A stretch of 64,000 bases of DNA. It comes from a virus. Its lineage: Duplodnaviria > Caudoviricetes. Positions 7,300 through 31,300 of this stretch are shown piece after piece; the stretch's first letter is position 1, and the number at the start of each line of letters is the position of its first letter. Both the position numbers and the translations under genes were made by a program. The stretch is from positions 5,419 through 69,418 of IMG/VR virus record IMGVR_UViG_3300043171_000012; one strand, written 5' to 3'. The notes under the pieces were generated by a model. It saw only the letters and a program-made list of their open reading frames with translations, did not search any database and was not told the origin of the DNA.

Positions 7300-7307
7300 G
7301 ATAAATT

Positions 7308-8084: not shown

Positions 8085-8385
8085 AACTAAAGACAAGATA
8101 GTACAAAACGTACTAAGGAAGATGGACGAACGTAGCTTAATAGGTCAAAAGAAATATGGAGCTACAATGATGCAAGAAATAGAAGGTCAAAAGAAAGATC
8201 TCAATAGATTTATTATTGATGTACAAGAAGAACTAATGGATGCAATACTGTATCTTGAATCAGCTAAACATTGTTTGAGAGATGAGATAGAAGAAGCTAT
8301 GTTAAACCGTATAAATATTATAGGTCAAAACGGTAACGATGGAGAGCATTATCATATAGAAGTAAATGAAGAAGAAATCTTATAA
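8074..8385 (+). CDS. All-alpha nucleotide pyrophosphatase-like protein (putative)
   Basis: RSLIGQKKYG...QEELMDAILYL pattern common in phage nucleotide-metabolism clusters. Confidence 0.5.
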   Translation: MQIKTKDKIVQNVLRKMDERSLIGQKKYGATMMQEIEGQKKDLNRFIIDVQEELMDAILYLESAKHCLRDEIEEAMLNRINIIGQNGNDGEHYHIEVNEEEIL

Positions 8386-8821: not shown

Positions 8822-8952
8822 CTAGGCAGAAATATGCTGAACGAAAAATAGATACGTGGTGGAAATGGAGTTTTGAAAATAGAAATAAAATAATCTACAA
8901 AGAGCTTGTAGAGATACAAAATAAATATGGAATAAAAGTATATGGCAAATAA
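8776..8952 (+). CDS. Hypothetical protein (58 aa, MRRDSKVNPFEAKR...)
   Basis: Translated by hand; fills the gap after the resolvase. Confidence 0.5.
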   Translation: MRRDSKVNPFEAKRIARQKYAERKIDTWWKWSFENRNKIIYKELVEIQNKYGIKVYGK

Positions 8953-9088
8953 GATTAAAGACTGGAGTTTATCTTTAGGGTTTTACCCGGGGATATTAAT
9001 AGGAATTAGAACATACGAAGAATTAGAGCAAACAACATATGTTTTGTATTTACCACTTGTTGATATAGCTTTAGAAGTATATAGATAA
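8942..9088 (+). CDS. Hypothetical protein (48 aa, MANKIKDWSLSLGFYPG...)
   Basis: Translated by hand; stop overlaps the nrdB start (TAATG). Confidence 0.6.
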   Translation: MANKIKDWSLSLGFYPGILIGIRTYEELEQTTYVLYLPLVDIALEVYR

Positions 9089-10056
9089 TGGGATTGTTTG
9101 ATGAGCGCGTAGCGTACAAACCTTTTGAATACCCTGAGTATTATACTGAGGGTTGGTTAAAACAAGCTCAGGCATTTTGGTTGCACACTGAAATATCTAT
9201 GAGTGGAGACATTAAAGATTGGAACGAAAAACTAAATGAATCAGAAAAAAACCTAGTAGGAAATATCCTGCTAGGCTTTGCTCAAACTGAATGTGCAGTA
9301 TCTGATTACTGGACACAAAAGGTAGTTGGTTGGTTCCCTAAACATGAAATACAACAAATGGCTATGATGTTTGGATCACAAGAAACAGTTCACGCTGTGG
9401 CTTATAGCTATTTAAATGAAACATTAAAATTAGAAGATTATGAAGCTTTTTTACATGAACCCGCTACTGCTGAGCGGTTTGATAATTTGGTCGCTTACGG
9501 CGGTAAGTCTCCTATTGGTATTGCAAAATCGTTGGCAATATTTAGCGCGTTCGCAGAAGGTGTTAGCCTATATTCTGCTTTCGCTGTACTTTATTCTTTT
9601 CAGTTACGCAATTTACTCAAAGGTATAGGTCAACAAATGAAATGGTCTGTAAGAGACGAAAGCTTACACAGTAAGATGGGTTGTCAATTATTTAGACATA
9701 TGTGTGAAGAGTATAGTGACTTACTTAGTTTATGTAGAGAAGACGTAATAAAGGCTGCTGAAACAATGGTGGATTTAGAAGAAAAATATATAGACAAAAT
9801 GTTTGAAATGGGTGATTTAGAAAACTTAAAATCAGAAGATCTAAAACACTTTATAAAAAAGAGAACAAATGAAAAACTTGTTGAACTTGGCTATGTCGAC
9901 TTGGGTAGCTATTTTGCGTATGACGACAAGGCAGCGTCTAATCTTGATTGGTTTTATCATCTTACCGGGGGCGTCACTCATACTGATTTTTTCGCTATTA
10001 GGCCAACTGATTATTCAAAAGCTGGAGAAAATGAGGACTATGAAGATATTTGGTAG
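9088..10056 (+). CDS. nrdB: Ribonucleotide reductase class I beta subunit
   Basis: KPFEYP N-terminus; metal-ligand motifs QTE, ETVH, AEG, DESLH; DFF...Y C-terminus. Confidence 0.93.
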   Translation: MGLFDERVAYKPFEYPEYYTEGWLKQAQAFWLHTEISMSGDIKDWNEKLNESEKNLVGNILLGFAQTECAVSDYWTQKVVGWFPKHEIQQMAMMFGSQETVHAVAYSYLNETLKLEDYEAFLHEPATAERFDNLVAYGGKSPIGIAKSLAIFSAFAEGVSLYSAFAVLYSFQLRNLLKGIGQQMKWSVRDESLHSKMGCQLFRHMCEEYSDLLSLCREDVIKAAETMVDLEEKYIDKMFEMGDLENLKSEDLKHFIKKRTNEKLVELGYVDLGSYFAYDDKAASNLDWFYHLTGGVTHTDFFAIRPTDYSKAGENEDYEDIW

Positions 10057-10614
10057 ATGATTTATATACAAGATAATTTTTTACCAAAAAATCTATATAA
10101 AGCTTTATTGAATTATGTTGATGATTTTGAGGAAATAAAGTATCCAGATAAATCTTTTTGGACTAAAGATCTACCTAATGAATTTAATAATTTCATAGTA
10201 GGTAAACTAGAAAAAATAGAAGGTAGAAAAATAAAGAATATATTATCTTTTGCTAGAGAGGCTAATTTAGGTCAAGATAATGATTGGCGCATACATAATG
10301 ATACTATAATAAATGGTGATCAACCAGATAGAGCTATAGTATTATATGTTAAAGCTAATGAAGATAAATTATATGGTACAGCTTTTTGGGAACATGAAAA
10401 TTACGGTCACACATATATTAAATCTAACAACGATGAGTTTGATAGAATGCTCAGAGAGGATTCAAACGATAAAACTAAATGGAGGTTAAACAGTGTTGTT
10501 GGTTACAAGGATAATAGACTATTGTCTTATCCGTGTGAGTATTTCCATAGCAAATACCCAGATGAATATAACAATCAAAGAATAGTAATTGTAATGTTTT
10601 ATAAATACATATGA
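10057..10614 (+). CDS. 2OG-Fe(II) oxygenase superfamily protein
   Basis: IQDNFLP start, HxD (IHND), GTAFW, NRL...YFHS, R-x-V strand. Confidence 0.7.
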   Translation: MIYIQDNFLPKNLYKALLNYVDDFEEIKYPDKSFWTKDLPNEFNNFIVGKLEKIEGRKIKNILSFAREANLGQDNDWRIHNDTIINGDQPDRAIVLYVKANEDKLYGTAFWEHENYGHTYIKSNNDEFDRMLREDSNDKTKWRLNSVVGYKDNRLLSYPCEYFHSKYPDEYNNQRIVIVMFYKYI

Positions 10615-10841
10615 AAGAAAATAAATTAATAGAAATGAAAAATAAAGTTGAGGCACTTACAAGGGTGTCTCAACATATGATTAATGAGCTAGCACAAATA
10701 AAAGATCTAGCTATAGGAACTTTAGAAACAATTAAAAACATGCCAGATTATGATGAAGCGATTAAAAAACTTAAAGCCGATGTTATTGAAAAGTCTAGTA
10801 AGGCAGAAAAGGCTGAGCCCTTGGAAGCGACTAGCGACTAG
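10611..10841 (+). CDS. Hypothetical coiled-coil protein
   Basis: ATGA overlap with the upstream gene. Confidence 0.6.
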   Translation: MKENKLIEMKNKVEALTRVSQHMINELAQIKDLAIGTLETIKNMPDYDEAIKKLKADVIEKSSKAEKAEPLEATSD

Positions 10842-11016
10842 AGCAGGATATATGGGTGCTGGTTTTTTAATAGCAGCACAATGGACATTGGAACCTAAGC
10901 TTTACATATTAGGTTTTATATGTGTAATGATTCAAACAGCATCAAGAAAGCAATGGAATTTAGTTGCTTTAAATTTTAATGGGCTAATAGCCTGGGTAAA
11001 ACATTTTATAGGATAA
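10780..11016 (+). CDS. Small membrane protein
   Basis: Basic N-terminus and about three hydrophobic segments; ends 1 nt before nrdA. Confidence 0.55.
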   Translation: MLLKSLVRQKRLSPWKRLATRAGYMGAGFLIAAQWTLEPKLYILGFICVMIQTASRKQWNLVALNFNGLIAWVKHFIG

Positions 11017-11017
11017 T

Positions 11018-12715
11018 ATGTGGAATAATGAATGGAAAAAAGGAGAAGATTACCCTACGTGGGGTAATACGGACGTATACAAGAAGACTATATCCGGGGG
11101 ATATTTATTTGACGGAGAAACACCTAGAGAAGCATACGTACGAGTCGCTAAAACAGTTGCTCGTAGATTATATAAGCCTGAAATGGCTGAAACGTTTTTT
11201 GATTATATTTGGAATGGCTGGCTTTGCCTTGCTAGCCCTGTATTGTCTAATACCGGGACTGATCGTGGCTTACCTATTAGTTGTTTTGGTATTGATGTAG
11301 CTGATAGTATACAGGATATAGGACAAAAGAATTTAGAGATGATGCTACTCGCTAAGCATGGTGGTGGAGTTGGTATCGGAGTTAATATGATTAGACCCGC
11401 CGGCACTAAAATAACAGGTAATGGAACATCAGATGGAGTCGTACCTTTTTGCAAGATATATGACTCAACAATTCTTGCAACTAATCAAGGAAGTGTCCGT
11501 CGTGGAGCTGCCTCAGTTAATATCAACATTGAACATGATGACTTCGAGGATTGGCTTGAAATCAGGGAACCTAAAGGAGATGTCAACAGACAATCGCTTA
11601 ACTTACATCAGTGCGCAATTGTTGGTGATAAATTTATGCGCAAGCTTGAACAAGGAGATAAGGAAGCTAGAGCTAGATGGGGTAAATTACTTAGAAAACG
11701 AAAAGCAACTGGAGAGCCGTATATCATGTTTAAAGGAAATGTTAACAAAGCAAATCCAGCAGCATATAAAGAAAACGGTTTAAAAGTACATATGACAAAC
11801 ATATGTTCAGAGATAACATTACACACAGATGAAAACCATAGTTTTGTATGTTGTTTATCATCTTTAAATTTAGCTAAATATGATGAGTGGAAAGATACAA
11901 ACCTTATTTATGACAGTATATACTTCCTTGATGGAGTCATGGAGGAGTTTATACAAAGAGCTAAAGGATTACGAGGCTTCGAGAATTCAGTACGCTCGGC
12001 TCAAAAAGGAAGAGCGTTGGGCTTGGGAGTATTGGGATGGCACACTTATCTACAAGAGAAAGGATTACCTTTCGAAGGGTTACTTTCTCAGTTTGAAACT
12101 AGGAAGATTTTTAGTCAGATCAAAATTGAAAGCGAAAGGGCTTCTAGAGATCTTGCTGAAATATATGGAGAACCTTTATGGTGTGTTGGTACCGGTATGC
12201 GTAATACTCATCTCCGTGCTATTGCTCCTACTGTTTCTAATAGTAAGCTTAGTGGAAATGTTTCTCCGGGTATTGAACCGTGGGCTGCAAATGTTTTTAC
12301 AGAGCAGAGTGCGAAGGGGACTTTCATTAGGAAAAACCCGACATTAGAGAAAAGATTAAAAAAACTTAAAATAAATAGTAAAGAAATATGGGACAAAATT
12401 TTAGCGGACGGTGGTTCGGTTCAAGACATAGAAGGTTTAGACGACTCTACGAAAGAAGTGTTTAAAACTTTTAAAGAAATAAATCAATTAGAATTAATAA
12501 GGCAAGCTGGATTAAGGCAGCAATATATAGATCAATCAGTTAGTTTAAATTTAGCTTTTCCTAGTTCAGCAACACCTAAGTGGATTAATAAGGTTCACTT
12601 TGATGCATGGAAAAAAGGCGTTAAGACTTTATACTATACAAGAACAGAATCTGTTTTACGTGGAGATATAGCTCAACAAGCAATGAGTGAAGATTGTTTA
12701 GCTTGTGATGGCTAA
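11018..12715 (+). CDS. nrdA: Ribonucleotide reductase class I alpha subunit (short, no ATP cone)
   Basis: ISCF, TNICSE, CCLSS, APTVS, KTLYY, C-terminal CLAC. Confidence 0.94.
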   Translation: MWNNEWKKGEDYPTWGNTDVYKKTISGGYLFDGETPREAYVRVAKTVARRLYKPEMAETFFDYIWNGWLCLASPVLSNTGTDRGLPISCFGIDVADSIQDIGQKNLEMMLLAKHGGGVGIGVNMIRPAGTKITGNGTSDGVVPFCKIYDSTILATNQGSVRRGAASVNINIEHDDFEDWLEIREPKGDVNRQSLNLHQCAIVGDKFMRKLEQGDKEARARWGKLLRKRKATGEPYIMFKGNVNKANPAAYKENGLKVHMTNICSEITLHTDENHSFVCCLSSLNLAKYDEWKDTNLIYDSIYFLDGVMEEFIQRAKGLRGFENSVRSAQKGRALGLGVLGWHTYLQEKGLPFEGLLSQFETRKIFSQIKIESERASRDLAEIYGEPLWCVGTGMRNTHLRAIAPTVSNSKLSGNVSPGIEPWAANVFTEQSAKGTFIRKNPTLEKRLKKLKINSKEIWDKILADGGSVQDIEGLDDSTKEVFKTFKEINQLELIRQAGLRQQYIDQSVSLNLAFPSSATPKWINKVHFDAWKKGVKTLYYTRTESVLRGDIAQQAMSEDCLACDG

Positions 12716-14103: not shown

Positions 14104-14562
14104 TTAAATAATTTTGTATTTTGTTTTTTTGTTTTCTTTGTAAGCTTTTAAACATCTATTTCTGTTATCCTTATTGTTAACATAAGATACATGTATCCAA
14201 TCTGGGTTTGAATCCGTACCAAACTCCCATATTAGTTGATCAAAATTTAAATTGTTTTTTATCCAGTTATACATTTCTGCATTAGTTTTATAACCGTATG
14301 TATCATCAAGATCCATTGCTTGACCTTTTACGTGTTGCGAGGTTGACGAACCTCCTATGGCTTTGTTTAATTTTTCTGATCTAAACATGCTTGAAATTTT
14401 TATTGGACCACCTACAAAATCTCTTAATGGTTCAAATACATTTAAAGCAATTGTTTTCATCGCGTCTATTTGTTCTGTGTTAGGTTTATTATCTATCTGT
14501 CTACGTTTGGCTGTATTAGAATACACAGCCTCAGCATAAGATACGTGTTTACTTATTTTCAT
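14104..14562 (-). CDS. Peptidase M15-family endolysin
   Basis: SSMFRS...LNKAIGG, SQHVKGQAMD and WIHVSY zinc motifs. Confidence 0.88.
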   Translation of the reverse strand: MKISKHVSYAEAVYSNTAKRRQIDNKPNTEQIDAMKTIALNVFEPLRDFVGGPIKISSMFRSEKLNKAIGGSSTSQHVKGQAMDLDDTYGYKTNAEMYNWIKNNLNFDQLIWEFGTDSNPDWIHVSYVNNKDNRNRCLKAYKENKKTKYKII

Positions 14563-17500
14563 ATTCCGTGTTTTTCCACTAGTTTTTCTAATTTAAACTT
14601 AGGTGTCATAACACCTGTACTTCTTTCTATTTTTCTTAAACTATCTTCAACTTTTATAGGTATAGTTTTAAAAGCTTCTTGTCTGTATTTATAATAATCA
14701 GCTTTTTCTATTTTCTTTTTTTGCCTAGTTATTTTAGCCTTTTCTTTGCCAGCTTCTTTTCTAGATGCTTTAGCTTTTGTTTTTATAAAATCATGTTCTT
14801 CAATTTGAACTCCAGCATCCCAAGACCTCCAACCTAAAGCAAGAGCTATTCTTTGCCACTGTGTATTTCTAGTATCTAAAGCTTCTGTTATAGAATTAAT
14901 TTCATCAACAGCTCTATCTAAAGGTAGGTTTAGTGTTGCAGCGGATAAAGAACCTATCATATTATATGTAGGACTTAATTGAAACTTACCATCTATCATG
15001 ACATCAAAACCTCTTTCATTCATCACATCTTTTTCATATTGTAATGTTTGTAGTGCAGCGTTTATTTTTCTAGCTTTAGAACCTATAGGTGGTGATATCT
15101 GAAGTGCCGCAAGTATTACATCTCCTTTTTCTCTTGCGAAAACTGGCTTCTCTTGATATTCTATAAATTCTCTAATTGTATTTTTCAAAGTAACACCAAC
15201 AGCTCCAGCTAGACCTGATCCACGAACAATAGAATCAATCATACCATTAACTATTCTACTTATTTTATTTTCTTCAGCTTTTATTTTATTTTCGTCGTAC
15301 TTATCTTTTTCTTTGTCAGTAGCAAAATCTTCATCTTCATCATCAAATCCTGGTACTAAAGCAAACAACGCATTTTGTAAAGCATTAAAGATAAAATTCT
15401 GTATTGCGCCGTAGTATAATATTTTAGATATATTTTGTCTTTTACTTCCTCTATTATTTATAAGATCTTGCCCCGCTTTTTTAATAAGCCTAGTATACTG
15501 CATAGGTGTATTTTGAAAAGCTAAAACCAATCTACCTAAAACACTAGACTGTTGACCTGATATAAGCATTGGATCTGCTGACTGTTGTGTTTCGTCTGAT
15601 ATAGCACTAAAATCATCAAAAGCTTTTTGTTCTGCTTCAGCTAATTCATATCCAGCTTTTTTATATGTCTTTATTCTATTTCTATAAAATGTAGCCCCAC
15701 CTGTTGCTATAGCTATACTATCCGCAATCTGTGTAGGGGTAAATCCAATTTTTAATAAATAAGAAATCACACCTGTCATACCACCTTTTTTAGATGCTTG
15801 AGCTATTTCAGCTTCTTGTATATCACCTTCTAACCCGGATCTTCTTTGTTTTAATTTGTCTGAATTAAATAGCTTTATAACATCTTTCCAGTACTGTGGT
15901 TGGTTTGCTAAAGCTAAAGCAGCTTGCGCTGGGTTATTATCTGACCAGTTTATAAAGTTAGCAGAAGACATTAACTGTAATAAAGCAGATCTTCTGTTAA
16001 AGAACATTATAGCACCAACAGAGTTATTAACCCAATTGTTCCACTTCTCAACTAGTCTACCACCACCACTAGTTTTATTATTACCGCTCTTCATTCTACG
16101 TATAGAATCCTCTAAAGCTTCTCTTATTCTAAACCCATAAACAGCCTGTACTTTATTTAAGTTTTCTGGCGAAAATATTATATCTACATTTTCTATAAAT
16201 TCAGATAAATATTCTTTTCTATTTATATCTCTACCAACTCTACTTAAATCACCTATTATAGTGCTTGCATCCCAGAAATCATTTGGTTCAATAAAACTAT
16301 CTAATCTAGTTATCAATTCAACACCGTCTGCAAATTGAGTTAAGTCATTGTTTTCACTAACTAGCTTTACTACTTTGGCTTGATCTGTTTTTGATAAACC
16401 AGGTATTGTATAACCTGCTCTATCCCATAAGAATATTCTTATTGCTTCATCAGTAGTATATTTAGTTCCCTCAAATTTTTTTCTTAATTTCTTTTTTATT
16501 TTTGGGTACTTTTTTATTAAAGCTCTGTAGTCATTTGTTATTTTTTGTTTTGCTTGCTCTACAGCTCCAACACCTCTTAAGTAAGGCTTAATAAGTGCTT
16601 TGTCAAAAAATTCTTGATCTGCTTCACCTTGTTTACCTTTACCAGCAAATGTGTACATTGTCAAGCCTCTAAAGTCATCAGCTGATGGCGGTATGAAGAA
16701 AGAAAATCTTTTTTGTTTCACACCTCTTCTTCTAGCTAACGCATCTGAAAAAGTAGCTTTAGCTTTTACACCTTTATTTCTTTCTATCATAGCGTTGAAG
16801 TCATCGCTAAGTTTTTCGCTAAACTTTATTCTAGCTTGTTGAACTTTAGATTTAACATCTAAAACGCTTAACACATTTTTAACGGCTTTAACATTACCTA
16901 GATGATCGTCTGTAAAATAAAAATCATTATAGCCTTCAGCAAATTTACCTAGCATCCAATCTGCTTTTGCTTGAGGTCTACCATCTGCTAATCCAGTTAT
17001 ATTTTTTAAAGGTATATTTAAACCTAAACTTCCTAAAAATTCTTTAATAGGACCAGCTGCGTCCTGCGGTCTAGCTGTTAGTACAAATATATCTTCAGAA
17101 CCTCTAACATCTTGTATTTTTTTCGCAACATCAAATAGTGGTCCTTTCTTGCCATTCATTACTTTGCTAAACTCAGAAAAATCCCATACAGCTCCTTCCG
17201 CTTCCATTCTACCAGCATCTTTAGCAAACGTACCAGCGTCTATTTTACCAGTAGTTCCATCAGGCATAGTGTATAAAACGTTACTCTTAGTTTGAGCCAG
17301 TGTATCATCAAAATCAAATACTCTAGCTTTTTTAATTTTCTCAGAGTACTTAGGGCTTCTAGCGTTCTTCATAGCTTTGTCAGCTATGTTATCTTTTTTA
17401 ACTTGTGATTTAGCTTCTGGTTTAAACGTACCTCTAATGTAAGGGCTACCATCTGCGTTTATACTATATTTATCTTGAAAATTAGTTCCATCAATACTTA

Positions 17501-20500
17501 TTAATCCTTTTGGATCTATACCTCCATCTACGGTAGCTACTAGTTCGCTAAAATATCTATCATACCATTTGTTGCTTAGCAAATTCCAACCCATTGGCAT
17601 TTCACTACGAAGACCTACAGCTATAAGCTTTTTATCCATAGCTTTATCTAATGATATTAACTTATAGTTATCTATAACAAAATCATAAGCACTTTCAAAA
17701 GCACTTTTAGATAATGAAACATCTAGCAAATATAAGTAAGCAGATGTAGCAGGCATGGCATGCTCGTATTCAAACCTACTACCTGTTATATTGTTAGAGT
17801 AACCTACAAATTGAGCCCCAAGCTTATGCCAGTGTCCAGTATCACTACCTGTTATCTTTAGATAATTACCTATTACTTTAGCATTTTCCTTATTTGATTG
17901 TATAGCTTTATTAAACCTATACCACATAGCTTGATGAATCTTACCTACCTTTCTATTAAAAGCAGCTATATCACCTGATTTAACTTTTGCTTTTATAATT
18001 TCTTTTGTTTTGAAAAGCGTATCATAACCAGATATAGAGAAGTCACTAACACCTTCTACAGGCGCACCGTATTTTTGATTAGGATCTGTAGCAAGTTTTT
18101 TCATTTGATCTACATAATACTCTTTATAAAGAGACTTAGCTACGTCAGTCGTACCTAATACTTTTGAAGTCGGTGTAAACACAGTTCCGTAATTACCTTT
18201 TTTATTTGGCTTACCAAACCAAAAATCTTTAGGCATCAAGGGTAGTAAATTCTTTTTAACCTCAGCTACATATTTATCTACATCTTCCCTTGTTTTAAAT
18301 TTAAAAGTTCCATCTATACCGTATGCTTTAAGTAAACCGTCAACACCTCTTGTTTCTAACTTAAATACTGGGTTAGCTAATATGCCTTTTACTTTTTCAC
18401 TAAACTGAATATCAGATCTACCAGCTCCCATATCAGCTTGTATTTGCTTAGGCGATCTAGATGATTTTTTAGTAAATTTAGAAACCTTATCTCTAGCTAT
18501 AGTATTAGCTATCATAGAACCTTTCAACTTAGCTATACCATTTAAAAAAGTACCTATATTTCTATCGTAATTATTTAGTTGACCCATAGGTGTTATACCC
18601 ATATCTTCTTGCAACTTCTTTACGGTTTCGTTAGATATAGCTCCAGTAAACTCTTGTTTTAATCTTCTTATAAAAGGTTGACTGCTCAAACCTGATGATC
18701 TTTCCCCCGTTTTATCTGCATAAAAATAATCTAATACTCTACCTTTTAAACCTATAGATCTACCTTGTGTGTCTTTTGATACTATAACTTTTTCTCCCTG
18801 TGGTCCAACTTCAGATTCTTTAGACGCAACATTTGTTGGTGGTAATAACTTTAAAAACTTTCTTACCTCTTGAGCATCTCTAAAATCATCCTGTATTCTA
18901 CCAGCTTCTGAATTTTCAGGTATACCATTTACTATTTTTTTAGCGTAAGTTAAATTAGCGTTTTTAGATATTTTGTCATTAGATATATTATATATAGAGG
19001 CAGCTATTTTACTACCATATCTACTACTTATCTCTTTAAAATCTAACTTAAACGGAGCAACATCACTAGGTTTTACGTCAACTAGTTTTTCTATATCTTT
19101 TATATCAGAAGAAACAGCTTTAAACTTTCTAGGATCAATTTTAGATACCGTTTCTTTATCCTCCCTAGCTTTTCTTTCCTCTAGTGTTTCACTTGAATCT
19201 TGTGCTACGATATCAAACCCTGTACCTATTCTTGTTTGCTTAAAATCTTTAGGGGCTAATTCTTGTTTATAAAATTTATTACCTCTACCCATTTTAAAGA
19301 CATTGGTAACATAAGTTGTAAAAGCTTGCTTCTTACCGTTTTTATCTATAGGTTTGTAGTTTTTTATAATACTGTCAAACTCTGTGCCTACAAATCCCAT
19401 AGCATCAGCAGCTGCTATATCTCCTTTACCAACATTGTAACCCATAGCATTTAACGCTACAGATTGAAATTGCATAAATAAATCGCCGTACTTTTCAGGG
19501 TCTTTCATAAATTCACTAGTATCTTCTTTATACTCAATAGCTAGTTTGTTTACTGTTGACTTTTCAGAAAGTTTAGTATCTTTTCCTTTAAAGTTTTTTA
19601 ACGCTTTTTTTGTTGTTTTACTTATTTTACCGGATCTAAATGCTGCGTTGTTTGCCGCTAAGTATTTTAAGGCTTTTTCAGGTGTATTAAGTTTATTAGG
19701 GTTTACGCCATTAAAAATCCTGGTCATTAAGCTGTCTTCTTTTTCTATCTGAACCTCATCTTCGTAAGCATATAAATGTTCTTGCATGTATTTAGTATAC
19801 TCATCTCTATACTTTTCGCTGTTTTCAAAGGTTAAATTTTCTTCAGCATATAAGTTGTCAAGCATTTTTCTTACACCTTGGTCTACAGCTTTTATAGCTT
19901 GATTAGTAGTTTGACTTGCTGCAACCGCTAAGTTTTCAGCATATATCTTTCTATTATCTTTACTTATTCTTGCGTCATCTACAATGTGAGAAAACTCGTG
20001 AAGTATAACTGTACCAGCTCTGATCTGTCCTTTTTCTAAATCAGCTTTAGCACTTTCTTTGTCTTGAGTTATTATAGTGTTACCCATAACAGCTCCGTAA
20101 GTTTCGCCGTTATTAAATTTAGAAACAGCTTCTTTATATTCATTAGAATTAACGTCTACTCCTTCATCTTCAAGAGCTTTTTTTAACTCTTCTTCAGTTG
20201 TGTACTCTACAATGTTTACATTTTTTATATCTGCAAATATATCGCTAGCCCTAGTATTTACACCTTCAGCCACAGAAATAGCTCTTGATCTATCTAAAGC
20301 CATTTGATCACCAAGTTCTTTATATCTAGCTTCTTTTTGTTTTTTATTTAGAGGTTTGTCGTTTATAGTTTCATTTTCAACGATTTCTATAATTTCAGGG
20401 TTTGCTTTTGCTGCTCTTTTACTTTTTCTGCTAACACTTTCTCTTACATGATTTATAACAGCTACTATTTGATCTTCGGTAGATTTAGACTTATAATTAT

Positions 20501-23500
20501 CTTTGTTTACCTTTCTTAAATACTTATCATTGTTTGTCCATAAATCACCTAAACTTTCTTTAGCTTTCTTAGTGCTAGTAGATTTTTCTTTTATATTGTT
20601 AGCCTGTTTATCTAATACGTTTAGTTGAGTTTCGAATACTTTAGCCTCTTCTTTTGTTAAAGATTCTTTGTATGAATTTATAACTTCAGCTTTATCAACA
20701 TCAGACATACCAGGCATAACACCTGCTTGTGATAAAAGTTGTGACTTTATCAACTCAGTACCTATTAATCTCTTTACATCGTCAACATCGCGACCAAGAA
20801 TATCTACACCTAATCTATCAACTTCTAGTCCTTGCTCTTGTAGGTTTGAAGCCATGTCAGATAGCAACAACTCTTTTTGTTTGTTATCTAATTTAGAATC
20901 CTGTATTAATGTACTAAGTTCGTTATTATTTAGCCTAAGCTTGTTTATTTTTTCTTCAAACTTTTTAGTTGCATTATAGTTTACTATACCAGAATAAGCA
21001 ACACCTGGGCTTTGTGAAACACCTAATGTTATTATAGTAGACATAGCAGTGTCATCCCAAGCGCTAAGATCTAGTTCTCTATCAAGTATACCATACTCTG
21101 TTATAAATTGTTGACCACCATATATTAATTCTTCTTCAGCAAGTTCTCCAGCTCCTCTCGTTAATAAAGGCTTGCCTATTAAGTCAGCTACTTTCTGATA
21201 CTTATTTGCGCCTAAATTTTTAGCTATACTTGTTAAAGACGTAGGAGATTTAAAATCCTTTAAAAGTTTTATAGTGTTAGGAGCTGTACCTAAAAACCTA
21301 GTTACAGTACCTTCAATTATACCATTAGCTAATGAAGCGTTTACTATTTGGGAATCGCTTATTTCGTACATGGCTTTTGCTTGATTTATATCCCTCATAG
21401 TATTAGTATAAGTATAAAAATCTATAACACCGTTTTCGTAAGCCTCTAAAGCAATTTTAGCTTGCTTATCAGCTGTACCAACTATTTGTTGCTGCGTTTT
21501 TAAGTCACGATATGTTTGTGTACCTGATGATATACCAAATAAACCACCAATAGCGTTAGCTGTCATAGCAGAAGATAAACCAGCCGCTGATCCTACACCA
21601 CCAGTAGCTATAGCTAGTGTGATGTTACCAGACTGTTGACCTAATGTTCTAAAAAAATAAGTACCGAAATCCCCATCATCATAGCTTCCCATTGTTTCAA
21701 AGTACTCGTCTTTAGCATTTAATCTTTTTTGAGCCTCTAAAGCCCACTCAGAATCCACAAGCGTTGGCACGGATAGAAGTATTCCTGCAAAAGCATCATT
21801 AACGTCTTTAGCAAATAACTTACCTAATCCATACTCTTTCATAGAATCTTTAAAAACCTCAGAGTCTACTGGATTAGCTGCATAAAATTCAGAAACCTCT
21901 TTCTGCATATTTTCTAAAGTAGCAGAGTAGTCTGATTGAAGATTAGCAAAATCATTTTGTAACTTAAACATTTCAGATTTTACTTGATTAAATAACTTAC
22001 CCTCTTCCGTATTGAGTTTTCTACTATTTGTTAGTGAAAAAACTGGATCACCGCTAGGTGTATAGTCTACAGAAAGTTTGGTGTCTGCTGGTGCATTATT
22101 TAAAAGTTGTTTAGCTCTAGTGTTTAAAACATCACCTATATTTTTTTCATATATTTTAGGTAATTCTTCGACTTGTTCTTTTATTCTTTGATCAAATTTT
22201 TCTTTTTCAATTTTACCAATTCCTTGACCTAGTCTAATTAAGTTTTGATTACCAGACTTATGCATGATCCTTTCCCCTATAGTTCTAGATTTGTTAAGTA
22301 GTTCTTCTTTTTTTAATTCTTCAATACCTCTTTTATAAATACTCAAGGCAAATTCTTCACCCCCTATAGAGTTTATTTTTTCTCTTATGCCTTCTGATAA
22401 ACCTCCAAGGTTTTTAGCAGCTGTTACTGCTTTATCCATAGACACAGGTATTTTTATCATTTTATCTAACTTGGCATTATAAACCATTTGAGCGCCATCA
22501 TCTACACCTTTATACTGTCTTATTTCATTTATTTCTTCTTCAGTAAGTTTATTACTTTCTGAAAGTTCATTTTGCAACGTGCTTATTAAATCTTCACCAA
22601 AAGTTTTTCTAAAGTATTCTAAATCTAAAGATTTATTAGATGTAATAACTTTTTCTTCTTGCTTAACTTTTCTGGCTTTTTCTTCTAAGTAATTACTAGT
22701 TGCTTCGTAGCTGTTGTTTTTTATTATCTCATAACCTTCTTCGCCTAAATCTTCTTTCATGAAAGATCTTAGCTTATCTACATTTAACTTTTCTTCAACT
22801 ACAATACCATCTTTTAAGATATTGTAAGAATAGGGTTGATATGTTCCATCTTTTCTCGATCCACTAGATTGATTTACAGAAACACTATAACCAGTGCCTT
22901 CTAAAGCTTTGTTTACAACTGTATCATCTTGAGTTTCGCCAAGTATATCAGCTAACTGGCCAACAGTATTAACCACTAGCTCTTCATCTGTTTGGCTTTT
23001 ATATGCTTTGTCTAGCTTTTTTAAAATGTCTACAGCTTCATCTCTACCGTCTAAAGTAAATGGTTGTAAGTCTAGTTCTATGGATTTATCTGTTCCAGGT
23101 AAAACTATGTTTAACGCATTTCTAACACCCGTTTGTTCTATAAAAACACCCGGATATTCACTCATTAAAAATTCTTGAACTTCTTCCTCTGTCTTATCTA
23201 TAATAGACATTGGCTTATCGATATCCATTTCTGAATCTCTATAAGCATCTTTTAGTTTTTTCCTTACATTAGAATATTTTTCATCAAGTAGCATTTTGCC
23301 AGCTCTAGTGCCATTATACTTATCTCCAAATATACCTCCTGGTTCAACTTTTTTGTATTCCGATAAAATATCTTCCAGCTGTGATTCCAAAGCGAATCTC
23401 TCGGATGCTTCGGGAGTTTTGGGCGTTACAGTCGCATCCTTCTGGTCTACAACACCCTTTTGAAAATCTTTTCCAACATCTTCAATTTCTTTTGTGGTTA

Positions 23501-23618
23501 TATTATTTTTAGATAAATAATCATTTAAATTTAAACCCGCAGCTGAAGCAAAGTCTTTTACCTCGTCTATAGTGTACTCTTGACCGTCTATAATATAAAC
23601 TGTTTTTTTATCTGCCAT
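14559..23618 (-). CDS. Giant internal-virion (ejection) polyvalent protein, 3019 aa
   Basis: Follows the other internal-virion genes; contains HEFSH zincin, sigma-region-2-like, EHAMP HNH-like and DFDDT HAD modules. Confidence 0.75.
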   Translation of the reverse strand: MADKKTVYIIDGQEYTIDEVKDFASAAGLNLNDYLSKNNITTKEIEDVGKDFQKGVVDQKDATVTPKTPEASERFALESQLEDILSEYKKVEPGGIFGDKYNGTRAGKMLLDEKYSNVRKKLKDAYRDSEMDIDKPMSIIDKTEEEVQEFLMSEYPGVFIEQTGVRNALNIVLPGTDKSIELDLQPFTLDGRDEAVDILKKLDKAYKSQTDEELVVNTVGQLADILGETQDDTVVNKALEGTGYSVSVNQSSGSRKDGTYQPYSYNILKDGIVVEEKLNVDKLRSFMKEDLGEEGYEIIKNNSYEATSNYLEEKARKVKQEEKVITSNKSLDLEYFRKTFGEDLISTLQNELSESNKLTEEEINEIRQYKGVDDGAQMVYNAKLDKMIKIPVSMDKAVTAAKNLGGLSEGIREKINSIGGEEFALSIYKRGIEELKKEELLNKSRTIGERIMHKSGNQNLIRLGQGIGKIEKEKFDQRIKEQVEELPKIYEKNIGDVLNTRAKQLLNNAPADTKLSVDYTPSGDPVFSLTNSRKLNTEEGKLFNQVKSEMFKLQNDFANLQSDYSATLENMQKEVSEFYAANPVDSEVFKDSMKEYGLGKLFAKDVNDAFAGILLSVPTLVDSEWALEAQKRLNAKDEYFETMGSYDDGDFGTYFFRTLGQQSGNITLAIATGGVGSAAGLSSAMTANAIGGLFGISSGTQTYRDLKTQQQIVGTADKQAKIALEAYENGVIDFYTYTNTMRDINQAKAMYEISDSQIVNASLANGIIEGTVTRFLGTAPNTIKLLKDFKSPTSLTSIAKNLGANKYQKVADLIGKPLLTRGAGELAEEELIYGGQQFITEYGILDRELDLSAWDDTAMSTIITLGVSQSPGVAYSGIVNYNATKKFEEKINKLRLNNNELSTLIQDSKLDNKQKELLLSDMASNLQEQGLEVDRLGVDILGRDVDDVKRLIGTELIKSQLLSQAGVMPGMSDVDKAEVINSYKESLTKEEAKVFETQLNVLDKQANNIKEKSTSTKKAKESLGDLWTNNDKYLRKVNKDNYKSKSTEDQIVAVINHVRESVSRKSKRAAKANPEIIEIVENETINDKPLNKKQKEARYKELGDQMALDRSRAISVAEGVNTRASDIFADIKNVNIVEYTTEEELKKALEDEGVDVNSNEYKEAVSKFNNGETYGAVMGNTIITQDKESAKADLEKGQIRAGTVILHEFSHIVDDARISKDNRKIYAENLAVAASQTTNQAIKAVDQGVRKMLDNLYAEENLTFENSEKYRDEYTKYMQEHLYAYEDEVQIEKEDSLMTRIFNGVNPNKLNTPEKALKYLAANNAAFRSGKISKTTKKALKNFKGKDTKLSEKSTVNKLAIEYKEDTSEFMKDPEKYGDLFMQFQSVALNAMGYNVGKGDIAAADAMGFVGTEFDSIIKNYKPIDKNGKKQAFTTYVTNVFKMGRGNKFYKQELAPKDFKQTRIGTGFDIVAQDSSETLEERKAREDKETVSKIDPRKFKAVSSDIKDIEKLVDVKPSDVAPFKLDFKEISSRYGSKIAASIYNISNDKISKNANLTYAKKIVNGIPENSEAGRIQDDFRDAQEVRKFLKLLPPTNVASKESEVGPQGEKVIVSKDTQGRSIGLKGRVLDYFYADKTGERSSGLSSQPFIRRLKQEFTGAISNETVKKLQEDMGITPMGQLNNYDRNIGTFLNGIAKLKGSMIANTIARDKVSKFTKKSSRSPKQIQADMGAGRSDIQFSEKVKGILANPVFKLETRGVDGLLKAYGIDGTFKFKTREDVDKYVAEVKKNLLPLMPKDFWFGKPNKKGNYGTVFTPTSKVLGTTDVAKSLYKEYYVDQMKKLATDPNQKYGAPVEGVSDFSISGYDTLFKTKEIIKAKVKSGDIAAFNRKVGKIHQAMWYRFNKAIQSNKENAKVIGNYLKITGSDTGHWHKLGAQFVGYSNNITGSRFEYEHAMPATSAYLYLLDVSLSKSAFESAYDFVIDNYKLISLDKAMDKKLIAVGLRSEMPMGWNLLSNKWYDRYFSELVATVDGGIDPKGLISIDGTNFQDKYSINADGSPYIRGTFKPEAKSQVKKDNIADKAMKNARSPKYSEKIKKARVFDFDDTLAQTKSNVLYTMPDGTTGKIDAGTFAKDAGRMEAEGAVWDFSEFSKVMNGKKGPLFDVAKKIQDVRGSEDIFVLTARPQDAAGPIKEFLGSLGLNIPLKNITGLADGRPQAKADWMLGKFAEGYNDFYFTDDHLGNVKAVKNVLSVLDVKSKVQQARIKFSEKLSDDFNAMIERNKGVKAKATFSDALARRRGVKQKRFSFFIPPSADDFRGLTMYTFAGKGKQGEADQEFFDKALIKPYLRGVGAVEQAKQKITNDYRALIKKYPKIKKKLRKKFEGTKYTTDEAIRIFLWDRAGYTIPGLSKTDQAKVVKLVSENNDLTQFADGVELITRLDSFIEPNDFWDASTIIGDLSRVGRDINRKEYLSEFIENVDIIFSPENLNKVQAVYGFRIREALEDSIRRMKSGNNKTSGGGRLVEKWNNWVNNSVGAIMFFNRRSALLQLMSSANFINWSDNNPAQAALALANQPQYWKDVIKLFNSDKLKQRRSGLEGDIQEAEIAQASKKGGMTGVISYLLKIGFTPTQIADSIAIATGGATFYRNRIKTYKKAGYELAEAEQKAFDDFSAISDETQQSADPMLISGQQSSVLGRLVLAFQNTPMQYTRLIKKAGQDLINNRGSKRQNISKILYYGAIQNFIFNALQNALFALVPGFDDEDEDFATDKEKDKYDENKIKAEENKISRIVNGMIDSIVRGSGLAGAVGVTLKNTIREFIEYQEKPVFAREKGDVILAALQISPPIGSKARKINAALQTLQYEKDVMNERGFDVMIDGKFQLSPTYNMIGSLSAATLNLPLDRAVDEINSITEALDTRNTQWQRIALALGWRSWDAGVQIEEHDFIKTKAKASRKEAGKEKAKITRQKKKIEKADYYKYRQEAFKTIPIKVEDSLRKIERSTGVMTPKFKLEKLVEKHGI

Positions 23619-26404: not shown

Positions 26405-27880
26405 TTAATAAGCCGACTGCACATATTCAGAAGAGACAGCAAATAACTCTTTGATTCCTCCCACTGCTGTTGCATCGTCTGTTGATATTGTTACTGTTGT
26501 AAAGTATCCTTTTATACCACTCATTTGGTTACCAAATATAACTTCACCTTGAGTAGATGGTGTTGCATTAATTAGGTTTGCAACATACTTGTTTTCTTTT
26601 CTAACGAAACCAGCATAGTTTCTATTATATGGAGGATTATCATTTCCAAATACAGTACCATACTGTGCTGGATAAATAACCTCGTTAGTGGCAGGGTTCA
26701 ATATATATTCTCCACCTAAATAACTAGGTATAGAAGCTGTAAGATCTGTAACGTTGTTATATGTTCCGTTATAACTATCAGGTCCAGTTTGATCAGATTC
26801 TATAGAGTCTATTCTCCAACCATTACTACCTTCATAGTTTATGGTTTTAAAGTTTTTAGACATGCTGACATTAGGGTTAAATATAAATGTTATAGATGTA
26901 TTGTTATTTACTCCATAAAAATTCCCTCTGTTTACAGAATCACTATAGTGCTGATATAGTATACCGTTATTAAAACTGTAAAAATCATTTCTTAAACTAA
27001 CCATAAACTCTGGTTTGTAAGTAAAGAAACTAGTCCAACCTCTTACTGACTCATCAAAAGACAATGTGCTGAACTTGTCGTCAGCTGTATTTTGTAAAGA
27101 CACCACATATTGTTTGTTGTGTATGTCCCAACCACCTGGCATATTTCCAGAACTAGTATTAGTGTTTACATTAGATAATTCATCTCTAAAGAAGTCATAC
27201 ATACCATAATTAGATATTTCAGTTATACCATCTCTAGACAGTCTTAATACTGCGCCTCTATCTGGATCAACAAAATATTTTCTAAATCCATAAGTTGCAA
27301 ATGACTCTGGATTTTTACCTATACCAAAATTACCTAAGTAAGGTACTATCTGACCTAACACTAAATTTAATTGACTTACTTGAACACCACCACCTTCAGC
27401 TGTATATATAGCATCTTTATCTATTAAAGAATAGCTAACTTTATTTTCTTGAAATATAGTTAAGTTCGTGTTTTCAGCAAATAACCTTTGTATACTACCT
27501 TGTGAAGGATCTAAACTTTTACTAATATCTTCACCTACTGGAAAAACATTTGTCTGGTTTATACCTGTTCTAGAATTAAATATTCCAGAATATATCAATG
27601 AGTTAATTCTCTGTATACCATTTAGTTCTTCTTCTACTAAAAAAGCTCTAGGCCCTAAATCAACAATAGTATTATTATAACCACCTCTTATTCTAGATTC
27701 TTCTACAAGCCAGTTATCTGTGGGACTATAAGCTGTTCCAACTTGGCTATAACCACCTTGCATATTACCAACTTTAGGAATACCTCTAGAGCCATTCCAT
27801 AAAGGTAGCTTACTTGAACTACCAATAGTCTTTTTCAATAGAAAAGAGTTGAAATATTTTACTTCTATTATAGCCGCCAT
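26405..27880 (-). CDS. Tail stabilisation/nozzle protein (P22 gp10-like part)
   Basis: GISKNPES-like motif (GIGKNPESFA), FVDPDRGAVLRLSRDGITEIS, GWTSF. Confidence 0.7.
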   Translation of the reverse strand: MAAIIEVKYFNSFLLKKTIGSSSKLPLWNGSRGIPKVGNMQGGYSQVGTAYSPTDNWLVEESRIRGGYNNTIVDLGPRAFLVEEELNGIQRINSLIYSGIFNSRTGINQTNVFPVGEDISKSLDPSQGSIQRLFAENTNLTIFQENKVSYSLIDKDAIYTAEGGGVQVSQLNLVLGQIVPYLGNFGIGKNPESFATYGFRKYFVDPDRGAVLRLSRDGITEISNYGMYDFFRDELSNVNTNTSSGNMPGGWDIHNKQYVVSLQNTADDKFSTLSFDESVRGWTSFFTYKPEFMVSLRNDFYSFNNGILYQHYSDSVNRGNFYGVNNNTSITFIFNPNVSMSKNFKTINYEGSNGWRIDSIESDQTGPDSYNGTYNNVTDLTASIPSYLGGEYILNPATNEVIYPAQYGTVFGNDNPPYNRNYAGFVRKENKYVANLINATPSTQGEVIFGNQMSGIKGYFTTVTISTDDATAVGGIKELFAVSSEYVQSAY

Positions 27881-27905: not shown

Positions 27906-28301
27906 TTAACTTCCGCTACCTTTATATATTAATAGAGGTTTTGGATTAAATTTTTTATATGAAAAGTCTAAATGTTGCCAGAATAATCCATCAATCCATT
28001 CACCTTTTCTTTGTTTTGCTTTGCTATGACCTCTATCATAAGATTTAGCAGCACGTGGTTTTTGATTACCTATTTGATCTTCATTACAATAGTAAACATC
28101 AAATGGACCTAACCTTCTACTTTGTTCTATTAATTTAGAAACTTGGTTTGAATCACTAGACCCAACAATACATATGTCTATATCTTTTGTTTCTTGTTTA
28201 TAAATTGCGCCACCTACTAAATATACATCATAATTAGCCCATTTTAATTCTAACAATTTTTTTATATAGATATCTATTTCTTTTTTACTATACAGTTTCA
28301 T
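27906..28301 (-). CDS. Minimal nucleotidyltransferase (Pol-beta superfamily)
   Basis: VYLVGG...KDIDICIV (hG[GS]-x-DxD) and a later FDVY strand. Confidence 0.62.
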   Translation of the reverse strand: MKLYSKKEIDIYIKKLLELKWANYDVYLVGGAIYKQETKDIDICIVGSSDSNQVSKLIEQSRRLGPFDVYYCNEDQIGNQKPRAAKSYDRGHSKAKQRKGEWIDGLFWQHLDFSYKKFNPKPLLIYKGSGS

Positions 28302-31300
28302 TACACAATAGCAAACTGATAGTTTGATCCTATGTTTACGGTGGTAGTAGTTGAGCCAGCATAAGATCCGTTTGGTTTAGATGATTCCCATAAGTCTAAA
28401 GCGGCAGATTGACTTGTTGAACTAAAAAACCACTCACCGCTAAACCCAGAGCAACTTCCAGTGCAAGCGTTAGTTCTATCTAGTAATATTGGGTTAGAGT
28501 TATTTAAAGAGTCCCAATCATAATCAAAAATATACCATCCGTTGTTTGCTGTAGTGCTATCATTTATACTTATTATTGTGCATTCAAAATCATCACCTTG
28601 ACTTTCACCTGGTAATACTAATGTTAAAACATGATCCTTAACGTATTGAGGCGTGTTACCCATAGTTATATTAACCACTTGATCTGTTGAACCACCTGGA
28701 TCACTAGCTCTAGCTGTTATAGTGTAATTTTGAGTTATAAACCCACCACCCATATTTCTACTAAGCGTAGCGGTAGATTGTAGATTTGTAGCTGTGCTAG
28801 CTATTGAAAATCTATTCACATAACTATTACCGTTGGCACCTACAGCTGAAATAATGCTCCATGTGATATCTCTACCTGAGTTTAAATTACCGTTAGCCAC
28901 ACAAGGACTTGCTCCGTTTTTAGCTACAATGTTTGTTATCTGACTAGCTGATACGCTTAAATTTACGTCTATAGCATTTCCATTAGGACATAATATAGGA
29001 TTTATATTTTCTAAGTCTATGGTTCTTGAAAATGCTGTAGAATTATTAAAGCCGTTTACAGAAACAGTAAAGTTAAATATAAAAGTTCTTTGACCTACAT
29101 TGCTACCATACCAAACATTGTTTAAGAAATCTTGATTTATAGTTACAGTAAAACCAGTTGCTTGATTACCAGTCCAGTTTGAAAAATAACTTGTTACATT
29201 AGCTGGTGTTGATTCGTTATTCATAACGCTCGTCATAGCAAACACAACAGTGTTAGATCCAGATGGGGTAGTATCCGCAGTAGGTATAACTTGATTTGCC
29301 GCGTTTAAAGCTTTAACACCATTACTAGCATTAAAAACACTAGCATTAAGAGCGATTCCTTCATTAAAACCTACGGGTGTAAATCCAGACAAAGCAGTTG
29401 CCGCGCCAGTGTCTGTAGCTGTCACGTTGTTTATATCTGTTATTAATCCAGCTGACGTTGTTTCGTAATATATATCAATTAAAGAATCTACAGGATCCGT
29501 TTCCATTACAGATAACTGTTGTATTCCAGGGTTTATACCACCACGTCTACCAGTTATTTTAACTTGTTTTCCAACAGGTATTTGAGCATCATCATCAAAC
29601 AATAACCAATTCTTTTTATTAGTACCAGCAGCGTTAGAGGAAGCTCCAGAATCTGTACAATTTAATTTCCATCCAGAAATATCTATTCCTGTTTGACCTC
29701 CAACCCAATTTGCTTCAAAAGGATTAGCGCTACCAGGATATGCTATTTGTAGACCTAATACACCTGTTACAAATGCTGGCTGGTTTGATGATACGAAATA
29801 AGAGGTTGTATCATTAACAACACCATCATTGCAGTTAGTGCTTAAAGGAAAAAATGGTGTACCAAATATAGCACTGCCACTTTCGTAAGACTTATTACCA
29901 GAGGGGGTTACAAAGTCTGGTGCTTCACCTAATTTACTTTCTGTACTTAATCTAGCAATTAATGGATTAGAATCATATAAATAAAACTGAGGAAATTGAT
30001 CTGGAACAGGTGGATCACTAGGATCATAATCAAACAAGTCTCTAAGAGTTGATATTGTGGAAACTGTTAAACCTTTTTGTGTTGCTTGAAATTGTTTGTT
30101 ACCCTCACCTATAGTGTATTGAGCATTAGCAGCGTTATTAGTCGGTACTTTGTTTGTATTTATCACTCTTGGAAATAAACGAACTGAACTTCTAAATTGT
30201 TTTTGTTGTGGCCCAACTTCTGTTAAATCTCTAGGTACTTTGTTTATATTATCATTTAATAAAACAGCGTGAGATAAAGTATTTTGATTTTCATTAGTGC
30301 TATCTTCAGATGTTTTAGGTTGTCCAGCTATAACACCAGGAAGATATACATTATAGTAATCTTGTTCTGTTTGTTTTACAACTATCTTGTAAGAATACCA
30401 ACCTAAAGGATTATACTCAGAACTTGTTTTGTCTCCGTTGTATATACCTGGCCAATTAGTTGATGGATTAGGATCCGCTGGTCCTATAGAAGAATTTAAT
30501 ATTACCTTTAAAGAATCGCCTGGAAAAGTTTCGGTTTGAAGTGAAGCATCTCTATACGGTAAATATAAAGTCGATCCACCATAATTAGTTCCACCTGATT
30601 GTACATTATCATCAGCATTAGATAATATAACAGAAGAAGATCTTCCATATCTATCTGATAAAACAAAACCAACTTGATAATTTCTATTTTGCTTTAAAGT
30701 ACTGTTAGGGTATTCTACAATGCTAGTGGTATTAGTTACTTCGTTGGTACCTGTGTTTACAGCAAAAGCACTTTTAAACGTTGCTGCTAAATTATAATCT
30801 AATGACTCTGGAGAAGTGTGTTTGTTTTGATAATTACCATAAACAATTCTATTGCTTGTAACTTCTTGAGCTAAAGCCTTTACAGGAACCTTATCGTAAA
30901 CTCTAGTTAATTCTGATGGCGGAAGAGTTTTCCATGGTTTAGTAGAATTGTAAGAATAATTATAAAAAGTAGCATTTCCTGTTAGTTGATCTGATGTTAT
31001 AGTATCTACTAGTTGTATAGACAAGTTTCCAGATTCTTTATATATAATATCTATTTCATCAATATCTAAAGAACTACCAATAGTACCAGCAGTTAAAGAA
31101 GCTCCGACTTCATTTAATGGCATAGGAATTATTAATTGTATCTTATCTACTTTATTTTCCATAAACTGCACAACTGTACTCTGCAAAGCATCGTTCATAT
31201 CGTTTACGTTATCCGAAGCATCATATAAAAAATAACCATCTTGTTTAGGTATAAAAGCTACTTGAGTAAAAGGAGCTAATAAAGAGTATTCCCCGTCTTT

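Follow-up and report, generated by a model that had tools for sequence, protein, structure and literature searches.

Conserved [KQ][FLY]SEK motifs at the module junctions of a giant zincin-bearing phage protein, a possible self-processing virion polyprotein

Phages and conjugative elements commonly encode giant polyvalent proteins, whose cutting into separate parts has been a proposal since 2017, with precedents both ways (P1 DdrB, N4 vRNAP). In the main text of Iyer 2017 (PMC5512222), embedded zincin peptidases are proposed to process polyvalent proteins and P1 DdrB is cited as processed. The internal virion proteins of podoviruses, as described in Hardies 2016 (PMC4819975), host domains destined for the cytoplasm, with the N4 gp50 virion RNA polymerase and other cargo embedded in homologues of IVP-D. 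In PhicrAss001, the products of the genes that follow the muzzle gene, gp45-gp50, are reported to be cargo that is kept in head and tail and leaves the virion ahead of the DNA (Bayfield 2023, PMC10172136). The preprint on phi24B (bioRxiv 10.64898/2026.04.10.717836) describes gp47 as a 2811-amino-acid (aa) polyvalent protein with LPD1, LPD5 and LPD38 domains and a MuF-C metallopeptidase, found in podovirus virions by proteomics. Here we examine a single open reading frame (ORF) of 3019 aa without internal stops (P0001), located at 14559-23618 (-) of a 64,000-nucleotide (nt) window. The window, the whole stretch of DNA that was analyzed, comprises bases 5419-69418 of the 69,418-base virus record IMGVR_UViG_3300043171_000012 from IMG/VR (CheckV 100% complete; G+C 30-39%).

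An earlier note, made from the letters of this DNA, had presented the ORF as an ejected virion protein that cuts itself at four [KQ][FLY]SEK motifs and had put this forward as a candidate for an undescribed system. The last phrase was too strong, because self-processing by embedded zincins had already been proposed in the main text of Iyer 2017. What is new here is a defined junction motif, together with sigma-like and Pnkp-type cargo in a polyvalent protein. A conserved junction motif, sigma-like cargo and Pnkp-type cargo in polyvalent proteins were not found in print, with Iyer 2017 covered in its main text and not in its supplements. The terms "sigma" and "polynucleotide kinase" have no occurrence in that main text (the FTP supplements are outside this count), and nothing on sigma factors delivered by the virion came up in a text search. 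The full reading weighed here is that the ORF encodes a virion polyprotein cut by its own zincin at hydrophobic-[KQ]-[FYL]-S-[EK]-x, between [KQ] and [FYL]. Cutting would free a sigma-like factor, a nuclease-like module and an end-healing phosphatase, and the cleavage code would co-evolve with the peptidase. We put the probability of this full reading at roughly one in four.

Recurrence of the motif at module junctions

The giant ORF contains one HEFSH sequence (aa 1207-1211; nt 19986-20000) and, C-terminal to this peptidase, all four copies of the motif. These are KLSEK at junction J1 (aa 1349-1353; 19560..19574 (-)), QFSEK at J2 (aa 1738-1742; 18393..18407 (-)), KYSEK at J3 (aa 2090-2094; 17337..17351 (-)) and KFSEK at J4 (aa 2265-2269; 16812..16826 (-)). 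The positions agree with those first read from the sequence, as do the Ser codons, which differ between copies (TCT, AGT, TCT and AGC for J1-J4), and the motif is kept at the protein level. A fifth SEK, in ENSEK (aa 1265-1269), lies within the zincin domain, and no hydrophobic residue precedes its Ser. Among the 15 SEK tripeptides in reading frames of the window (stop to stop, at least 80 aa), F, L or Y stands before Ser only at J1-J4, and the hydrophobic-SEK motif is present in no other window ORF of at least 80 aa. In 20000 shuffles of the giant protein, the expectation for [KQ][FLY]SEK was 0.038 copies per protein; eight shuffles had two or more copies and none had four or more. Because the pattern was defined after the data had been seen, homologues are a better control than shuffles.

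A word-seeded search with aa 1150-2300 returned 1765 proteins at E ≤ 0.001 among 8000 scored candidates. The analysis set was the best 120 of these 1765, nearly all of them metagenomic and 2000-4100 aa long, and removal of ten near-identical rows (P0102-P0111) left 110 non-redundant homologues. The motif occurs 184 times in the 110 proteins. Of these matches, 173 align to J1-J4 and ten flank extra or replaced modules, leaving as the single exception a copy inside the HAD domain of P0094; in other words, 183 of 184 matches mark a junction or adjoin a module that is inserted or swapped. The earlier expectation that the motif is kept at boundaries in homologues held best at J2, where the [FYL]-S core is present in 91/91 aligned homologues, and at J4, where F and S are each present in 100/102. 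Both are near-invariant, but many homologues lack J1 or J3: Y is present in 70/78 and S in 60/78 at J3, and S in 51/64 at J1, the least conserved junction. The position two before the aromatic residue is mostly V, I or L, so that the fuller motif is hydrophobic-[KQ]-[FYL]-S-E-K. More distant giants have repeated copies of K-[FYL]-S-[KR]-[ST] downstream of their HExxH.

The motif could be a by-product, whether of chance, of composition or of recombination joints that left a functionless remnant. K, E and S abound in the protein, and a pattern described only once seen is open to this objection. On the other side are the absence of four copies from all shuffles, the differing codons and the conservation of the motif at fixed junction positions down to ∼30% identity. 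We consider this explanation, already disfavored, to be very improbable.

The family is largely one of metagenomic giants. An exhaustive HMMER search with aa 1150-1460 recovered no more than 58 representatives out of 1.84 billion, most of them giants as well, and the 18 IMG/VR loci examined of 41 found all encode fused giants of 2435-3789 aa. Searches by megablast and tblastn with the gene, aa 1100-2400 and aa 2270-3019 had no match in 50,697 phage records and thus revealed no cultured relative, and Pfam recognized no family in four divergent homologues. One homologue, P0073 (2858 aa), is on a 665,756-base contig and may belong to a prophage or integrated element; others are on ∼60-kb viral contigs. 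Gene fission at the junctions was considered and rejected, as no natural splits were evident when 33 shorter relatives (contigs of at least 20 kb) were mapped. Many shorter relatives begin at aa ∼2080-2093, just before J3, and other short ORFs have a start or an end within a domain. The short relative that was checked, P0166 (L004), begins at an internal start, and its frame stays open as far as the end of the contig.

Predicted structure and the natural variation of modules both place the motifs at boundaries. Two AlphaFold models, built on alignments, cover aa 1720-2300 (mean predicted local distance difference test score, or pLDDT, of 77.1) and aa 1150-1760 (mean 73.3). J2, J3 and J4 are in stretches of pLDDT <50 between confident domains: J2 is below 50 in both models, and the J3 region (model residues 344-374) and the J4 region (535-581) are below 50 in the first. 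J1, conversely, is modeled as a five-residue beta strand right after the zincin (model residues 199-203, pLDDT ∼64-75). The claim that the motifs fall at domain edges is borne out across homologues and by the low-confidence linkers at J2-J4, and the position of the J1 strand, directly behind the zincin, also counts in favor of processing. In 22 rows, a module of 296-419 aa takes the place of F, and in 18 of these the novel sequence follows directly on the J2 motif. Nine distinct homologue rows have an additional module, with a novel core of 52-64 aa, that is bordered by the motif at both ends. In four relatives, a 440-503-aa module is between HAD and the C domain and is followed by an F-S motif, which in one of the four is also in front of it. 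That the motifs mark module junctions is therefore strongly supported. Homologues P0036-P0038, P0044 and P0048-P0051 also have a mini-module of ∼70 aa (INKPFF...VKFSEK) between two junction motifs, which would come free as a small peptide if the sites are cut.

Modules delimited by the motifs

If the protein were cut at J1-J4, the pieces would be 150.8 kDa (isoelectric point, pI, of 5.0), 43.4 kDa (pI 9.4), 39.5 kDa (pI 9.5), 19.2 kDa (pI 8.7) and 85.0 kDa (pI 9.5). The first of these includes the N-terminal region (aa 1-1150; 20169..23618 (-)), which is acidic, lacks the junction motif and matched no family in Pfam or PHROGs. It is Gly/Ala-rich and moderately hydrophobic at aa 609-627 and 666-696; hydropathy peaks are moderate (1.2-1.3), and we draw no transmembrane claim from them. 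The region is followed by the stretch at aa 1151-1348 (19575..20168 (-)), which is predicted to be a zincin-like peptidase domain. H1207, E1208, H1211 and E1280 are invariant in 30/30 aligned sequences. In the model, HEFSH is in a helix (50-68) and the conserved Glu is in a later one (119-135), as expected of an HExxH helix and a third ligand.

Module E (aa 1354-1737; 18408..19559 (-)) had been read as a sigma-like piece, and this holds for its beginning. Its first ∼100 residues (nt 19257-19559) have the predicted fold of sigma-factor domain 2, but the rest is an alpha/beta domain with no family assigned, and no sigma-4 was recognized. When a profile of 30 full-length homologues was compared to PDB, three rows were returned at E ≤ 1, of which only the sigma row is meaningful (8x6g_H, E 0.071). 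There was no match of module E to Pfam Sigma70_r2, and an hhalign comparison of the zincin-plus-E alignment with the sigma gene of the phage itself gave a probability of 0.08. Module F (aa 1743-2089; 17352..18392 (-)) has a confident predicted fold and an invariant E1952-H1953 that ends a hairpin (strand 231-234) and is followed by a helix (238-251). Fold lists are filled by HAD hits and barely cover F, and a language-model search of the Atlas gave it no named family; the description of F as HNH-like is only a lead.

The HAD module (aa 2095-2264; 16827..17336 (-)) holds up as first read. It has the DxDxT nucleophile, invariant at 2102-2106, and a HAD Rossmann-like fold closest to Pnkp, which makes it by predicted fold a polynucleotide 3'-phosphatase of the T4 Pnkp type. 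The fold aligns to aa 2093-2252, so that the domain starts just after KYSEK and stops ∼10 residues before KFSEK, in agreement with the boundaries first proposed for it. In 18 rows, a P-loop kinase of ∼200 aa (PF13671/PF06414) is inserted inside HAD after motif I and has no edge motif. The insert follows directly on DxDxT in homologues P0024, P0027-P0033, P0060, P0119 and others, a kinase-in-phosphatase layout. T4 Pnkp, unlike these homologues, has an N-terminal kinase and a C-terminal phosphatase.

The C-terminal domain (aa 2270-3019; 14562..16811 (-)) is the most conserved part of the family and has the highest number of invariant columns in the giant-protein alignment. It had no Pfam match and no tblastn match in the phage records. 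Its language-model neighbors in the Atlas, which are leads only, are clusters with LPD39 (28% of members, score 0.95) and LPD38 (92%, 0.94). For the ORF as a whole, Pfam gave no match at E ≤ 1, including to LPD or MPTase models. Foldseek searches of PDB with both AlphaFold models returned none at E ≤ 0.001, and a search of BFVD returned only uncharacterized viral relatives and HAD/Pnkp phosphatases. With 3019 aa and zincin-like, sigma-2-like, F, Pnkp-type HAD and C-terminal modules encoded in a phage structural operon, the protein has the makeup of a polyvalent protein.

Cleavage at the motifs and its possible agent

It is plausible, and to us somewhat probable, that the junction motifs are endoproteolytic cleavage sites. 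Unrelated modules share a peptide at their edges and hardly ever have it inside, which is the pattern of sites in a polyprotein. The kinase inside HAD, which would be expected to stay attached, is without the motif. Zincins usually take a large hydrophobic residue in the S1' subsite, and on this basis we guess that the scissile bond is between [KQ] and [FYL]. The literature on the site preference of anthrax LF says no more than that basic residues come before the site, and we give it no weight here.

The proposition that the embedded zincin does the cutting is more tentative, and we would place it just short of even odds. A single HExxH is retained in every branch of the family, at a set distance ahead of module E. 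Among divergent homologues examined, 21 of 22 have one HExxH 142-233 aa upstream of module E. The sequence is still present in 32/33 homologues without a BLAST-detectable zincin and in 18/18 of the IMG/VR giants examined. The residues that follow Ser also vary with the type of zincin, the classes being BLAST-based. In homologues with the window's zincin type, [ED][KR] follows Ser in 62/76 at J2 and 67/76 at J4. In those with other types, it does so in 0/34 at both junctions, and K/R-x is found in 27/34 at each. Within a protein, the residues after Ser tend to be identical at J2 and J4 (+1 in 81/99, +2 in 80/99), as in the pairs NS/NS of P0095, KK/KK of P0040 and P0073, and ER/ER of P0035 and P0099. 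Concerted change of J2 and J4 in phylogenetically independent pairs was in the same direction (3.3 v 0; 3.2 v 0; 2 v 0; 3.0 v 0.5; 5.2 v 0.5).

Several observations weigh against self-processing. None of the tests of concerted change is significant (median p 0.125-0.5). The relation of zincin type to motif amounts to two to three independent transitions when traced on the C-domain tree, with a sign-test p of 1, and with so few transitions the association is inseparable from descent. Relatives that have a different, non-alignable type of zincin retain the [FYL]-S core. Conversely, among the homologues with the same zincin type, [FYLM]-S is absent at J1 in 28/76 and at J3 in 12/76. J4 is within a longer conserved stretch, DVKSKVQQA[RK]xKFS, which is modeled as a helix and could be structural. 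Replaced modules stop ∼35-45 aa before J3 rather than exactly at it, and the conserved unit is therefore linker plus motif, not the motif alone. The expectation of the earlier note that modules are gained or lost exactly at the motifs is in this way correct for most left edges of the modules that replace F, after J2, but not for their right edges. Lastly, N4 vRNAP, ArdC and TraC1 carry peptidases of this kind and, according to the main text of Iyer 2017 (PMC5512222), travel unprocessed. A predicted complex of the zincin (aa 1150-1345) with Zn and a J2 peptide (aa 1715-1760) scored 0.00 in both runs, which had no controls, and is uninformative either way.

These observations raise the possibility that the motif serves as a conserved linker or docking site and is never cut, and that the protein stays whole like N4 vRNAP. 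In variants of this explanation, the motif would tether the modules to one shared partner in head or tail, act as a hinge for unfolding and threading through the tail, or be held by a non-catalytic zincin clamp. The unprocessed carriers, the helical stretch around J4 and the ∼40 linker residues that the conserved unit at J3 takes in all fit an uncut element, and concerted change of copies is expected with any common binding partner, not just a protease. In contrast, the invariance of HExxH, including its catalytic Glu, in 30/30 sequences and its presence in nearly all relatives argue for an active enzyme. The restriction of the shared peptide to module edges and its absence from the edges of the kinase are likewise more in keeping with sites that are cut. 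We view an uncut linker as possible, though doubtful.

Alternatively, the junctions may be cut by a different enzyme, either a phage head-maturation protease or a host protease, and the zincin may serve for, e.g., cleavage of the cell wall or of host proteins. T4-type prohead proteases cut hydrophobic-x-Glu sites, after the Glu of (L/I)-x-E. The shape [FYL]-S-E, with a cut after Glu, would be compatible with such sites, and the [FYL]-S core is common to relatives with different zincin types. The authors of the phi24B preprint (bioRxiv 10.64898/2026.04.10.717836) give the peptidase of their virion polyvalent protein a wall-degrading role in its available text. However, no capsid, scaffold or other cargo ORF of at least 80 aa in the window has the site. 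No prohead-protease family was found among the window proteins scanned (30 in PHROGs and 10 in Pfam; small ORFs were not scanned). Because the site is confined to one window protein and no such protease was recognized, a head-maturation protease is unlikely. In relatives, moreover, the residue after Ser is K instead of E, a poor fit to a Glu-specific protease. Overall, we consider cutting by another enzyme to be unlikely.

Under self-processing by the zincin, the ORF would encode a cargo polyvalent protein that is internal to the virion of an uncultured marine podovirus, related to phages of Flavobacteriia and with a crassvirus-type muzzle, and is ejected. The 1150-aa N-terminal part would be followed in order by the zincin-like domain, the sigma-2-like module E, F, the T4 Pnkp-type HAD and the 750-aa C domain, joined by flexible linkers that end in hydrophobic-[KQ]-[FYL]-S-E-K. 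The motifs would be sites of processing, with the embedded zincin as the most probable enzyme. It would act in cis on J1, which is at its own C-terminus, and in cis or in trans on the other junctions. Pieces of ∼151, 43, 40, 19 and 85 kDa would be released inside the head or after ejection. Once free, the sigma-like factor may re-aim host RNA polymerase at the incoming genome before phage gene expression. The RNA/DNA end-healing phosphatase (a kinase-phosphatase in relatives) may undo host defenses of the anticodon-nuclease type or those that damage ends. Co-evolution of code and peptidase would pair SEK with one zincin type and SK[GST] with others.

The family offers an unusually clean test case, with one peptidase, four near-identical sites and natural site variants paired with peptidase variants. 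If the full reading is true, this motif would give the polyvalent proteins of phages their first processing site defined by sequence. Real sites would allow cargo modules to be parsed in thousands of metagenomic giants, and would suggest that a sigma-like factor and an end-healing enzyme of the Pnkp type, both delivered by the virion, are among first-minute cargo.

Genomic context and comparison with known systems

The giant gene is part of a late operon on the minus strand. Large terminase (40624-42861 (-)) and portal (38209-40623 (-)) are followed by a 403-aa ORF without a family match, a capsid-type structural protein (35469-36953 (-)) and several "virion structural protein" PHROGs. Next are two ORFs for a tail protein like the crassvirus muzzle (28301-32059 and 26405-27880, both (-); phrog_14478; PF25729 crAss_MUZ_C, E 2.5e-8). 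Three small ORFs separate these from the giant ORF, and an endolysin gene (14104-14562 (-)) comes after it. Of the muzzle-like ORFs, the one of 1252 aa matches positions 1-188 of phrog_14478 and the one of 491 aa matches positions 923-1246 as well as PF25729. Between them is a 131-aa ORF (27906-28301) with a weak match to a nucleotidyltransferase (phrog_1614, E 3.4e-5). The muzzle-like gene could be split or interrupted.

The portal is 40-49% identical to portals of podoviruses of Flavobacterium, Cellulophaga, Maribacter and Tenacibaculum. A giant gene is at the same place in MW202828 (3859 aa), Maribacter phage Panino (1829 aa) and Flavobacterium phage elemoE (gp18, 3694 aa, "structural protein"). 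These three syntenic giants have no significant blastp similarity to the 3019-aa ORF and no obvious single repeated junction motif. From synteny with the crassvirus cargo genes, we infer that the giant protein is located in the virion, and the role as an ejected virion protein first suggested for it fits this arrangement.

A conventional sigma factor gene (2110-2865 (+); phrog_351, E 1.8e-18) is in the replication-side module. Since it encodes an ordinary sigma factor, the phage does make use of the host polymerase. With this gene and the sigma-2-like module, the phage may have two sigma-type proteins. The plus-strand region at 1-12715 further encodes an Erf-like annealing protein, an exonuclease, a primase-helicase, thymidylate synthase, MazG and class I ribonucleotide reductase (9088-10056 and 11018-12715); no DNA polymerase or RNA polymerase was recognized among the window ORFs scanned. 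GroEL is encoded at 48520-50094 (-) (phrog_5725, E 2e-136), and GroEL/GroES are also present in MW202828, Panino and elemoE; the phage GroEL may be required for the folding of giant cargo or of capsid proteins. A repeated segment, ...S[GS]SEKMRID, is common to two adjacent, very large tail-fiber-like proteins (51688-59631 (-); 1127 and 1519 aa).

Relative to described systems, the giant ORF is closest in kind to the polyvalent proteins of Iyer 2017, which are likewise encoded in phage structural operons and have HExxH with a downstream Glu and variable enzymatic cargo. It differs in its junction motif, as the main text of that study gives no cleavage motif (PMC5512222). N4 gp50 is also a podovirus internal protein of ∼3000-3500 aa with cytoplasmic activity in the first minutes and a peptidase domain (PMC4819975; Iyer 2017). 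It is packaged unprocessed as reported in those sources, and sequence similarity to the giant ORF was not found. Unlike N4 gp50, the giant ORF shows no T7-like RNA polymerase domain and has no RNA polymerase match in PHROGs or Pfam. Its transcription-related module is instead sigma-like, which implies that the host polymerase would be used.

The cargo of PhicrAss001 resembles the giant ORF in that the genes are downstream of one for a muzzle-type tail protein and encode large proteins. There, as reported, the cargo is made from separate genes (61-277 kDa), including RNA-polymerase-associated ones, whereas here comparable pieces would arise by cutting the product of a single ORF. The terms "cleav", "peptidase" and "protease" have no occurrence in the main text of PMC10172136. 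Like the giant ORF, phi24B gp47 is giant and bears a peptidase; it is invisible by cryo-electron microscopy and is a proposed ejection protein. In the available text of the preprint, its peptidase is read as wall-degrading and no processing or junction motif is reported. The likeness between gp47 and the giant ORF is one of description only.

T4 internal proteins, the phiKZ inner body and RNA-virus polyproteins resemble the giant ORF in having repeats of a short recognition site that border their cargo or functional units. Processing of T4 internal proteins and of the phiKZ inner body depends on a separate assemblin-type protease and a site common to many head proteins. The giant ORF departs from this scheme: its site is confined to one protein rather than shared, and the candidate protease is a zincin and not a prohead protease. 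In RNA-virus polyproteins, an embedded protease cuts at its own C-terminus.

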